From Escherichia phage vB_EcoM_LNA4, in the sequence record MZ311864.1: DNA of 64,000 bases. The stretch is one strand, 5' to 3'. Positions 62,282 through 64,000 of the stretch are shown piece after piece (the first letter of the stretch is position 1; every line of letters starts with the position of its first letter). Position numbers and translations under genes: made by a program. Under the pieces are notes generated by a model. It saw only the letters and a list, made by a program, of their open reading frames with translations. It was not told the DNA's origin and searched no databases.

Positions 62282-62285
62282 TCTA

Positions 62286-62308
62286 GGCCGGGATTATTCC
62301 CGGCTTTT
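62286..62308 (+). terminator. rho-independent terminator closing the early block
   Basis: GGCCGGGAttatTCCCGGC then TTTT. Confidence 0.7.
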
Positions 62309-62428
62309 GCATATCATAACCCACACCAAACCACAACCCAAAATCTTTACCCGCTTTTATGTTGGTTGCAATATCGCAACTGAGAATTATTCTCACCAAT
62401 CCCGTTGGCAATTATGCAATAAAGTGAA

Positions 62429-62448
62429 TTTAAAGAGATCTCTTTAAA
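62429..62448. repeat. 20-bp perfect palindrome (operator-like)
   Basis: TTTAAAGAGATCTCTTTAAA is its own reverse complement. Confidence 0.8.
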
Positions 62449-63406
62449 GACATACAACGGCAAGCCTAACAGATAAACCCTCTCAAAACGCGTTATATTG
62501 CGTTTAATCGTGTATCTTTACCCGCCTTTGACTCACTCACACCCCAAAAATGATAACGCAGGTTATCAAGTGAATAAACACCGTGTTTTTATGCAAATTG
62601 AGTGAATACGAAGCAAAAACCCTGAAATGATAACTTTTCTCATCTAACCCTTTGTGTGAACTGCCTTTTTTGAGCATAGAAATCATCTTTTGTCAAATAA
62701 AATATCGTTCGCGTAATCGTGGGGAGTGGCGCGAGCGGAGCGAGCGACACAATAACACGAAGGGTAACTCAAACGATAATAAATATCGTTTTCGTTCGCG
62801 TTATCGTGGCTCGTTAGCGCTATTGTCGCATAGCGATTCAATGTTACACATTGAACCCGTAAACGGGCAAGGCTAAGCGTTAACAGACAGGATGACTAGA
62901 ATGATGAATAATTAACAATGCAACTATTACATAGTTGAAGTATTTTATAACCTCGCCACGATAACACCGATTAGCTGATCGCTAATCGCCCTCGTGTTAT
63001 TGTGTCGCCAGGTTATGAAGATCAAAGGCATTTAATTAGCCTTTAATGGTTGACAAACCATGATTAATAGAACTGTAAACCAGGCCGCTGGCCTGCTAAT
63101 TGCTGGTTTTCTTGAGCATGAAAAGGTGTGCGAAGCTGGCTAACTGTCAAGTGTTTTATTGATAGGAAAAGTCTATTAAAGCCAGGCGTAGCAAGGGCTA
63201 AACGAGAATTGTTATCATGTGGCTAAATGCTCAAGATAGGTAGAATTGCTAAACACATATTTCCCTCTGTGTCAAGCTTTTTGTGGCAAATTTACAAAAT
63301 ATTTTCCATTTGAGAATGGTTTTCATTTCGAAACTGAAATCGAAATCGTATTCAGAATGATTATCATTTGCATTCTCATCGACAAAACACCCCACAAAGT
63401 GAATAA

Positions 63407-63425
63407 TAACAGGTGTAAACTGTCA
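63407..63425. repeat. 19-bp direct repeat, copy 1
   Basis: TAACAGGTGTAAACTGTCA. Confidence 0.8.
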
Positions 63426-63598
63426 TGCTGGTAACATGTAGCAGGCTATTGGTTGCTGTCTGGTATGGTTCACTGATGCAATGATAACATATGTGACTAT
63501 ATGGCCTGTTGCCCGGTGACCTCTGGTGCGTATAACGTGTATTATGTTAAATAGAGACATTCACACAAATATAACCAAGTCAATAGCAAATCGTGCTG

Positions 63599-63617
63599 TA
63601 ACAGGTGTAAACTGTCA
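63599..63617. repeat. 19-bp direct repeat, copy 2
   Basis: TAACAGGTGTAAACTGTCA, identical to copy at 63407. Confidence 0.8.
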
Positions 63618-64000
63618 CATTGCTAATAGTTGCACTTGTAATCATTAGTTTCGTTGCGAAATCATCATGCAATCATCGTGCCAAGAACTCGATGGGGTCT
63701 CGTGGTCAGACCTCTCAGATATTTTGTAAAGATCCTTGACAACCCGGAGGGGCTGTGATTGTCCGTCTAACACATCAGACATAGAGACAACAGATATTTT
63801 CGTCCCCAAGAGATACAGACCAGGGGCCTCTTTTATTTCCCTCCGGGCGGGGGAGGGGGTGGGTTTTAGTTAGTGATGAGCCACTGACAAGGCGATATGC
63901 TTATGCTGTAAACATGTTGTGTGGTATGTGTTTATGGAATGGCGTTTTATAGACATGACAATTTGTTAATGAAATGTACACTATGGTAGGCAGGGGCGGT

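Follow-up and report, generated by a model that had tools for sequence, protein, structure and literature searches.

When a phage keeps a long stretch of DNA without genes, the question arises what this DNA is kept for. The stretch considered here covers positions 62310-64000 of the window (the whole 64,000-nucleotide piece of DNA analysed, from Escherichia phage vB_EcoM_LNA4, record MZ311864.1); the source of the window is a Vequintavirinae (Seunavirus-like) phage, with GAP31, EC152 and 4MG as its closest relatives. An earlier note, made from the sequence, had offered four possibilities for this region, namely an origin, a packaging region, a genome-terminus control region, or a locus for small regulatory RNAs. 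The genome-terminus and packaging options have since gained ground, owing to a homologue of a direct terminal repeat (DTR) with both boundaries kept, whereas the argument for an origin from DnaA-box-like motifs did not survive a chance test. The main feature of the region was overlooked at that time: the scattered inverted repeats nest into one large, covariation-supported fold. We read the locus as a concatemer junction, or genome terminus, at which this fold-back element serves as a DNA-level signal, and assign to this reading as a whole a probability of roughly 0.55.

A reality check is in order at the outset: is the region indeed non-coding, and is it conserved? No credible open reading frame (ORF) is found in 62310-64000, in agreement with the earlier note; the longest one is 74 aa, and every reading frame is broken by 1- and 2-nt indels among close relatives, which rules out coding. 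At the same time, the region is kept in relatives and is partly more conserved than the neighbouring protein genes: identity to the Mydoviruses at 62690-62822 is 90-93%, as compared to 66-68% in the adjoining gene. Non-conservation, which the note would have taken as evidence against its reading, is clearly not what is observed.

Base pairing in the fold-back element is under selection

The nested inverted repeats revealed by the repeat search (62691/63055, 62745/63007 and 62800/62965) make up a branched element, domain 1, in which closing pairs, a GC hairpin, an outer helix, two further hairpins and an inner helix are arranged around a variable apex (Table 1). Compared to shuffled sequences, the segment 62600-63260 folded as RNA yields z-scores of -11.3 (+ strand) and -6.95 (− strand); the core (62690-63056) folded as DNA yields -8.27 and -8.35 on the two strands. 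The consensus fold from a 23-sequence alignment of Seuna- and Mydoviruses comprises 61 pairs, with 99.4% of the cells paired, 9 compensatory pairs and 0 one-sided ones. In the shuffle control, 0 of 500 alignments reached the observed paired fraction, covariation score or number of doubly-changed cells (48, against 13.2 ± 3.2 in the shuffles); in the slide control, where partners were shifted by 1-3 columns, pairing amounted to 22-57%, with 0 compensatory pairs.

The strongest evidence for a pairing constraint is provided by the outer helices of distant genera. In seven lineages of five genera, this helix is perfect over 18-22 bp and occupies the same position, yet differs in sequence; in Henuna-, Certre- and Vequintavirus, the sequence has been swapped, and the helix is still perfect. 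Intramolecular base pairing in the element is under selection.

A different kind of constraint acts further inside. The inner helix and the direct copies of the motif TCGTTCGCGTWATCGTGG are sequence-invariant in the 23-sequence set of Seuna- and Mydoviruses, and also in the Henunaviruses (Erwinia phages). The CGTAATCGTGG / CCACGATAAC-type repeats that the earlier note had pointed out are real, with direct copies at 62705 and 62792 and an inverted copy at 62955; the direct TCGTTCGCGTWATCGTGG copies are 87 bp apart, and both this motif and the inner-helix motifs are confined to this locus within the 64-kb window, making TCGTTCGCGTWATCGTGG a candidate protein-recognition site. The invariance of the inner motifs, taken together with arms that change freely while remaining paired, indicates that the element joins sequence-constrained parts with parts in which only complementarity is constrained; the former are probably protein sites.

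Closer to the DTR, a second stem (domain 2) comprises 10 pairs, 3 of them compensatory, with a few broken cells, so that its support is moderate. In all lineages, the distance from its end to the left DTR cut is 13-16 nt. Erwinia phages (Henunavirus) carry CGTGGGC / GCCCACG at the position of this stem, again a compensatory replacement. On the other side of domain 1, the compensatory pair 62552-62567 of a local hairpin is GC in 11 sequences, AT in 12 and broken in none. An outermost pairing (62627-62652 / 63193-63218, 81% complementary) was not counted because it is lost in GAP31, EC152, KPP-1 and AV124. Finally, a reverse-strand comparison of 23 apex sequences showed no flip/flop inversion of the apex between the arms; only internal palindromes matched.

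A probable genome terminus with a direct terminal repeat

What lies next to the element? The end-to-end alignment of the segment 63252-63767 with the repeats of KPP-1, DP and Hena1 makes it very likely that the locus is a genome terminus carrying a DTR. In KPP-1, a DTR of 514 bp (116,316-116,829) was set by two-fold coverage and PhageTerm (PMC9862379). The record of Klebsiella phage DP ends with an annotated repeat_region, also of 514 bp; both repeats align to the window segment and share its junctions, which read TGCTA|AACAC at the left end and ...TGTCCGTC|TAACAC (GTCCGTC|TAACA) at the right end. The record of Erwinia phage Hena1 contains a "direct terminal repeat 1" and a "direct terminal repeat 2", which are identical, 519 bp long, and bounded by junction motifs identical to those of the window. 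Both motifs are present, 509-516 bp apart, in 18 of 18 relatives. In the rV5-like phage Gotham, a terminal repeat of 459 bp has been described (PMC7471380), and it comes directly after the homologous fold-back element; the terminal repeats of relatives span the 460-520 bp class. Since 63252-63767 is the homologue of these repeats, the unique sequence ends, on its right, in the non-coding stretch 62311-63251 and begins, on its left, with the DNA to the right of the repeat.

The terminal repeat of Vequintavirinae is, as such, already known: the short DTRs of KPP-1 (514 bp), Hena1 (519 bp) and Gotham (459 bp) fall into the PhageTerm class of T7-type packaging. The repeat considered here is homologous to them, belongs to the same length class, has identical junctions and occupies the same place between convergent gene blocks. 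The repeat itself is no different, the distinction being that the window holds one copy, from a collapsed or permuted assembly, and that duplication at both ends of the virion DNA would be expected from the homology.

The left third of the DTR is AT-rich. Further inside, an island at 63524-63552 is near-invariant across Seuna-, Mydo-, Henuna-, Certre- and Vequintavirus, with matches found in CR3, PBES 02, and Pectobacterium and Serratia phages. The island contains a -10-like hexamer TATTAT without a conserved -35, and the promoter scan flagged 63516-63545; a promoter and a site for a protein are its two candidate roles.

Several observations on individual relatives pertain to the repeat and its ends. 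Ro1 (L010) and FENT2 (L018) carry a tandem duplication of the left junction motif immediately ahead of the DTR (…GTGTGTTA GTGTATTGCTA|AACAC), pointing to slippage, or to more than one round of processing, at the cut site. Similarity to many relatives (EC152, 4MG, SPLA5a, KE22, SalP219) ends abruptly at 63787, 20 nt beyond the right DTR boundary, so that the first DNA of the left unique end (63768-63800) appears to be a mosaic or recombination breakpoint. In CR3 (L057 1599-2190), six same-strand repeats of the ATTCTCAT type (GAATGATTCTCAT) are located around and inside the start of the putative repeat. In the window, 63315-63380 contains just two or three degenerate, iteron-like copies of this type; iterons of this kind, clear in CR3, show no significant enrichment in the window (2, with 0.6 expected).

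The insertion-free gap of Bas54

Independent information on the importance of the locus comes from Bas54, the rV5-like phage MaxBurger. No transposon insertions were recovered in its bas54_0134/0135 gap, which is the only large non-coding stretch without insertions, a result left unexplained in the preprint (HIDEN-SEQ, 10.1101/2025.11.20.689424). This gap of ~2-2.5 kb (L061 1866-4377) holds a homologue of the element, together with the beginning of the DTR, and the full anatomy is present in Bas57, a sibling of Bas54. The two loci are syntenic, with homologous element and DTR, and differ in genus and in extent (~2.5 kb as compared to 1.7+ kb); the preprint provides the importance of the gap, with neither anatomy nor mechanism. 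A cis-acting signal for packaging or end formation would explain why the Bas54 gap does not tolerate insertions.

How might the element work?

When considering the function of the element, the foremost issue is whether it folds as DNA or as RNA. Compensatory pairing, as expected of a structured RNA, is present, and taken alone it cannot separate RNA from folded DNA; a large structured non-coding RNA of ~370-650 nt, similar to the ornate large RNAs of phages, with the covarying pairs as its helices, would account for the multi-branch fold, the long closing helix, some GNRA-like (GTAA) loops and three invariant appositions on the + strand that are G.U-compatible, and TTGACA-like motifs lie close by. 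We nevertheless deem such an RNA rather unlikely, since the strand specificity expected of it is lacking: the consensus energies of the two strands are equal (-101.0 vs -102.5, alifold), neither strand folds consistently better in a set of 25 relatives (the + strand is ahead in 15 of 25, with a mean difference of -1.5 kcal/mol), and one-sided changes are absent. No G.T pair or other wobble occurs inside the 18-22-bp outer helix in any of its seven versions, nor any wobble intermediate at the covarying pairs, which is atypical for RNA; an attempt to assign the RNA strand by G.U asymmetry gave no consistent signal. RNase III is expected to cleave an RNA duplex of 18-22 bp, which also counts against an RNA. 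The tRNA, tmRNA and Rfam searches returned no matches, the Rfam 15 search neither at the gathering score nor at E<=1. The element is located downstream of a strong conserved terminator and does not appear to be enclosed by a conserved promoter-terminator pair: promoter-like matches are at the chance level (8 vs 7.1), and the TTGACA at 63051 is conserved without a co-conserved -10 element. Small regulatory RNAs, one of the options of the earlier note, find no support either: there is no Rfam match, and the fold lacks strand asymmetry. Strand-symmetric folding and the lack of a match in Rfam favour, without proving, a fold-back structure of DNA, that is, a cruciform or a snap-back.

If the element acts as DNA, what does it signal? 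That it is a replication signal is possible, albeit unlikely; such a signal might be either an origin or a site for single-strand initiation that would recruit a primase or helicase loader via hairpins in displaced single-stranded DNA, with the placement at the chromosome end securing priming near the terminus. Such a role would be in line with a structure-dependent, strand-symmetric element whose local hairpins have 3-4-nt loops, with the invariant motif in direct repeats, with the AT-rich left part of the DTR and its GAATGATTCTCAT-like repeats (six copies in CR3), and with the lack of insertions in the homologous gap of Bas54. However, signals for single-strand initiation depend on orientation, whereas the element shows no strand bias; stem 2, being tightly coupled to the DTR cut, fits more naturally with processing; there is no mapped origin in the subfamily, and packaging and replication roles could coexist. 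An origin dependent on DnaA, in particular, has hardly any chance of being correct: the only hint at it came from the AGTGAATAA-type motifs of the earlier note, whereas the consensus TTWTNCACA has 0 matches in 62310-64000 and 3 in the whole window, below the 7.6 expected; AAGTGAATAA (<=1 mismatch) is at chance (7 vs 6.1 expected), and relatives carry AACTGAATAA at the same position. The left part of the DTR is AT-rich, as an unwinding element would be, but 13-mer-type repeats were not identified. Improbable as well is the view that the repeats are sites for DNA-binding proteins on ordinary duplex, as are the R sites of lambda cosB, with no fold-back at all, the apparent covariation resulting from co-evolution of half-sites and protein or from repeat homogenisation. 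The sequence-invariant inner motifs, being both direct and inverted, would suit such sites, as would TTGAGCAT and TGTCAA, which also occur in both orientations. Yet the outer arms match at all 18-22 positions in seven lineages while most positions differ between genera, several small hairpins vary freely in sequence with pairing kept, the inserted cassettes have only hairpin potential in common, and the apex is never inverted, so that recombination between the arms is not evident.

We consider instead that the element may be a DNA-level signal for packaging or processing, a specific role for which the odds seem about even. The element would function as a cruciform extruded from the duplex or as a snap-back in transiently single-stranded DNA, serving as a cis-acting signal for the packaging machinery on replicated concatemers. 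The invariant motifs, namely the three copies of TCGTTCGCGTWATCGTGG and the pairs TTGTCAA/TTGACAA and TTGAGCAT/ATGCTCAA, would be recognized by proteins, probably terminase subunits, and the geometry of the folded arms could position a first cut at TGCTA|AACAC and a later one at GTCCGTC|TAACA. In addition, the fold-back may aid duplication of the single copy of the junction repeat, yielding one per daughter genome. A bolder proposition, which we regard as doubtful, is that the cruciform or snap-back is mechanistically required for the terminal repeats, with the terminase nuclease cutting a structure similar to a four-way junction or a folded 3' end priming repeat duplication. Should this be true, a conserved, essential, structure-based answer to the repeat-duplication problem would exist across a subfamily of large myoviruses. 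The alternative, covered by the same doubt, is a new RNA family, with the element as a large, structured and essential member.

Several considerations weigh against the reading of the locus as a concatemer junction with a DNA-level signal. The DTR is assigned by homology and is seen in one copy, and recognition by terminase is putative, the packaging role being suggested by position and by an analogy with T7/T3. The distance between element and DTR varies, from ~245 bp here to larger values with inserted cassettes, which argues against domain 1 as a rigid measuring device. For a cruciform whose loops measure 70-240 nt, extrusion from duplex DNA is kinetically difficult, and two protein-binding half-sites that change in concert could give the appearance of covariation. 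That Bas54 lacks insertions could have technical reasons, or be due to the DTR alone. Lastly, the T.G appositions that are invariant on the + strand, three in number (62708/62735, 62714/62729 and 62765/62988), are A.C mismatches on the other strand, a weak hint at a fold of the + strand.

Comparison with known systems

A parallel may be drawn with the concatemer junction of T7 and T3, where pacB lies on the right-end side of the repeat and a hairpin-ended intermediate has reportedly been proposed to prime repeat duplication (Chung, Nardone and Hinkle 1990; Hashimoto and Fujisawa 1992). Common to both are a short terminal repeat, a cis element in unique DNA by its right-hand copy and the implication of fold-back DNA. 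There is, however, no sequence similarity; the element described here is far larger (~370-650 bp), branched and conserved by covariation, no pause site for a phage RNA polymerase is evident, and the phages are myoviruses with unrelated gene content; the role of the element is thus far putative. The cos site of lambda (cosN, cosB with its R sites and the IHF bend, and cosQ) is likewise a multipartite cis site with motifs in both orientations beside a separate cleavage site; it differs in producing cohesive ends rather than terminal repeats and in acting on bent duplex, where intramolecular pairing is not selected for. The T- or Y-shaped inverted terminal repeats of parvoviruses share with the element a long stem around at least two small hairpins near a genome end and a structure-dependent function. 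In contrast to these, the element is internal (245 bp from the end), resides in double-stranded DNA, shows no flip/flop among relatives and belongs to an unrelated replication system.

A literature search found no published description of the element, and the element, its two-tier constraint and its link to the insertion-free gap appear to be new. The Vequintavirinae (rV5, PVP-SE1 and phi92-type relatives, with many therapy candidates) are broad-host-range, widely used phages whose replication and packaging signals are unmapped. For gaps of the Bas54 type, an anatomy can now be offered, consisting of a DTR with conserved cut-site motifs and a fold-back element in which the sequence-dependent and structure-dependent parts are separable. 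On the practical side, the locus shows annotators where to open these genomes, the small ORFs called here can be discarded as spurious, and the DNA is to be kept intact in engineering.

Setting of the locus and feature list

A megablast search with 62282-64000 matched 57 phage records, all of them Vequintavirinae, headed by GAP31 (93% identity), EC152 (96%) and 4MG (92%) and followed by PVP-SE1-type Seunaviruses and then Klebsiella Mydoviruses. In every relative, the homologous gap is 1.7-2.5 kb long and separates convergent gene blocks, namely a + strand block of small genes closed by a terminator on the left and − strand genes pointing into the gap on the right. The terminator (62286-62310) is kept in Seuna-, Mydo- and Henunavirus relatives, and its homologue is annotated as such in the PVP-SE1, Mydo and Gotham records; it is missing from the output of the automatic terminator scan. 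GC is down to 0.41 across 62-64 kb, and tandem repeats in the region amount to a trivial 11-nt doublet.

Table 1. Window coordinates of the features at the locus, with the arms of the outer helix in relatives
Feature	Position	Strand	Remarks
Rho-independent terminator GGCCGGGATTATTCCCGGCTTTTGC	62286-62310	+	closes small-gene block; read in sequence
~55-nt insertion of small hairpins	62357-62416		TTATG duplication at flanks; presence/absence among close relatives
Perfect 20-bp palindrome	62429-62448		only core GAGATCTC conserved
Local hairpin TGATAAC/GTTATCA	62551-62568		pair 62552-62567 compensatory
Branched inverted-repeat element (domain 1)	62690-63056		covariation-supported fold; closing pairs TGTC/GACA
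Motif TCGTTCGCGTWATCGTGG, copy A	62705-62722	+	copy B 62792-62809; inverted partial copy C 62955-62965
GC hairpin of domain 1	62706-62737
Outer helix of domain 1, 20-bp	62745-62765 / 62988-63007		left arm GCGACACAATAACACGAAGGG; right arm CCCTCGTGTTATTGTGTCGC
Outer helix, PVP-SE1 and KPP-1 clades			both arms are variants of the window's arms
Outer helix, pEp_SNUABM_01			left arm GCCACCTATAAAAGCAAGTAG; right arm CTACTTGCTTTTATAGGTGGC
Outer helix, Hena1			left arm AGCCACCTATAAACGCTGATAG; right arm CTATCAGCGTTTATAGGTGGCT
Outer helix, CR3			left arm GACCAATAGAAAACAGGT; right arm ACCTGTTTTCTATTGGTC
Outer helix, Bas57			left arm GACATAATATAAAAGCAG; right arm CTGCTTTTATATTATGTC
Hairpins of domain 1	62772-62790 and 62969-62987
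Inner helix of domain 1, invariant, 11-bp	62800-62810 / 62955-62965		GTTATCGTGGC / GCCACGATAAC
Apex of domain 1	62811-62954		variable
Window-specific 52-nt insertion in apex	62821-62872		three small hairpins; absent from GAP31, EC152, 4MG
Domain 2 stem TCTTGAGCAT / ATGCTCAAGA	63110-63236 (63110-63119 / 63227-63236)		encloses variable interior
Direct terminal repeat, by homology, 516 bp	63252-63767		end-to-end alignment with KPP-1, DP and Hena1 repeats
19-bp direct repeat TAACAGGTGTAAACTGTCA inside DTR	63407-63425, second copy 63599-63617	+	two-copy state lineage-specific
Near-invariant island GCGTATAACGTGTATTATGTTAAAT inside DTR	63524-63552		27-29 nt, kept in five genera
C-rich/G-rich hairpin followed by TTTT	63837-63865	+	terminator-like; inside left-end unique DNA; contains G-rich tract

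Hairpin cassettes and record ends at the element

Lineage-specific insertions of 50-80 nt, each with 2-3 small perfect hairpins (loops, e.g., TAAA, GTAA or TAC), are scattered over the locus. They are found at 62357-62416 and 62821-62872 in the window, at 6682-6760 in L002 and at the same site in L016, L019 and L018, at ~3380-3430 in L013 and L022, and within domain 2 in L002, L009, L012, L020 and L022; short duplications, TTATG or GTGTTATWGTGTC, border some of them, and their presence varies between close relatives. The insertion at 62357-62416 is near-identical where present (the window, where it is single-copy, EC152, PVP-SE1, GEC_vB_MG and FENT2) and is absent from GAP31, 4MG, YZU08 and SPLA5a. 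The hairpins of the apex insertion are TCGC-ATA-GCGA, TTCAATGT-TAC-ACATTGAA and CCCG-TAAA-CGGG; its CAATGTTACACATTG hairpin occurs at another site of the element in YZU14 and KE23. Conversely, one and the same site can hold two different cassettes, as in PVP-SE1, GEC_vB_MG and AV124 compared to FENT2. These insertions look like mobile or slippage-generated mini-cassettes confined to the locus; that they are repeats dispersed genome-wide was rejected, as the modules occur only here in the window.

Five independent genomes or metagenome contigs start or end inside the element (window ~62785-63006): L005 and L058 start there, and L006, L024 and L046 end there. The record of PBES 02 (L058) opens precisely with the right arm of the CR3-type repeat; that of SalP219 opens at the 3' arm of one of the small hairpins in the apex. 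By our estimate, five record ends in a ~250-bp target of a 145-kb genome are far above expectation; they could reflect a fold-back artefact of assembly or coverage, or real minor DNA ends. A contig seemingly broken at the apex (L007, L011) was rejected, since the two are neighbouring pieces of one contig that is intact in L037.

Short motifs and public annotation

The short motifs listed in the earlier note fared unevenly. Both the sequence and the repeat search confirm the perfect palindrome TTTAAAGAGATCTCTTTAAA at 62429-62448, of which the core is found at a fixed distance from the fold-back element in 8 of 18 relatives. The two exact copies of the 19-bp TAACAGGTGTAAACTGTCA are where the note had placed them, at 63407 and 63599, the second being limited to the window's own clade and FENT2. 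The G-rich tract GGGCGGGGGAGGGGGTGGG is likewise present at 63845-63863, and CCTCC...GGAGG hairpins similar to the one that contains it follow the DTR in Bas57 and CR3. The GAAATCGAAAT motif, in contrast, which was thought to link the region to that at 51.6 kb, is at the chance level (3 vs 2.1 expected). A segment of 30 bp (62413-62442), of which the left half of the palindrome is a part, has a second copy in GAP31 and EC152, ~6 kb upstream between genes of the early block; the window is without such a copy.

An 18-mer scan of metagenomes yielded mostly chance matches, with true relatives making up 7 of 25 stretches. Annotation of the gap in relatives is either lacking or consists of scattered tiny ORFs that disagree between records, and public annotation of the locus is unreliable (records MW882934 (EspYZU08), OY757067, OY978796, OY979426 and PQ002171). 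A 159-nt ORF within the terminal repeat carries the label 'ligase', and in some Klebsiella phage records the non-coding match is called 'major head protein', 'terminase large subunit' or 'tail fiber protein'. SEW_6S is classed as Demerecviridae; its sequence is Seunavirus-like.

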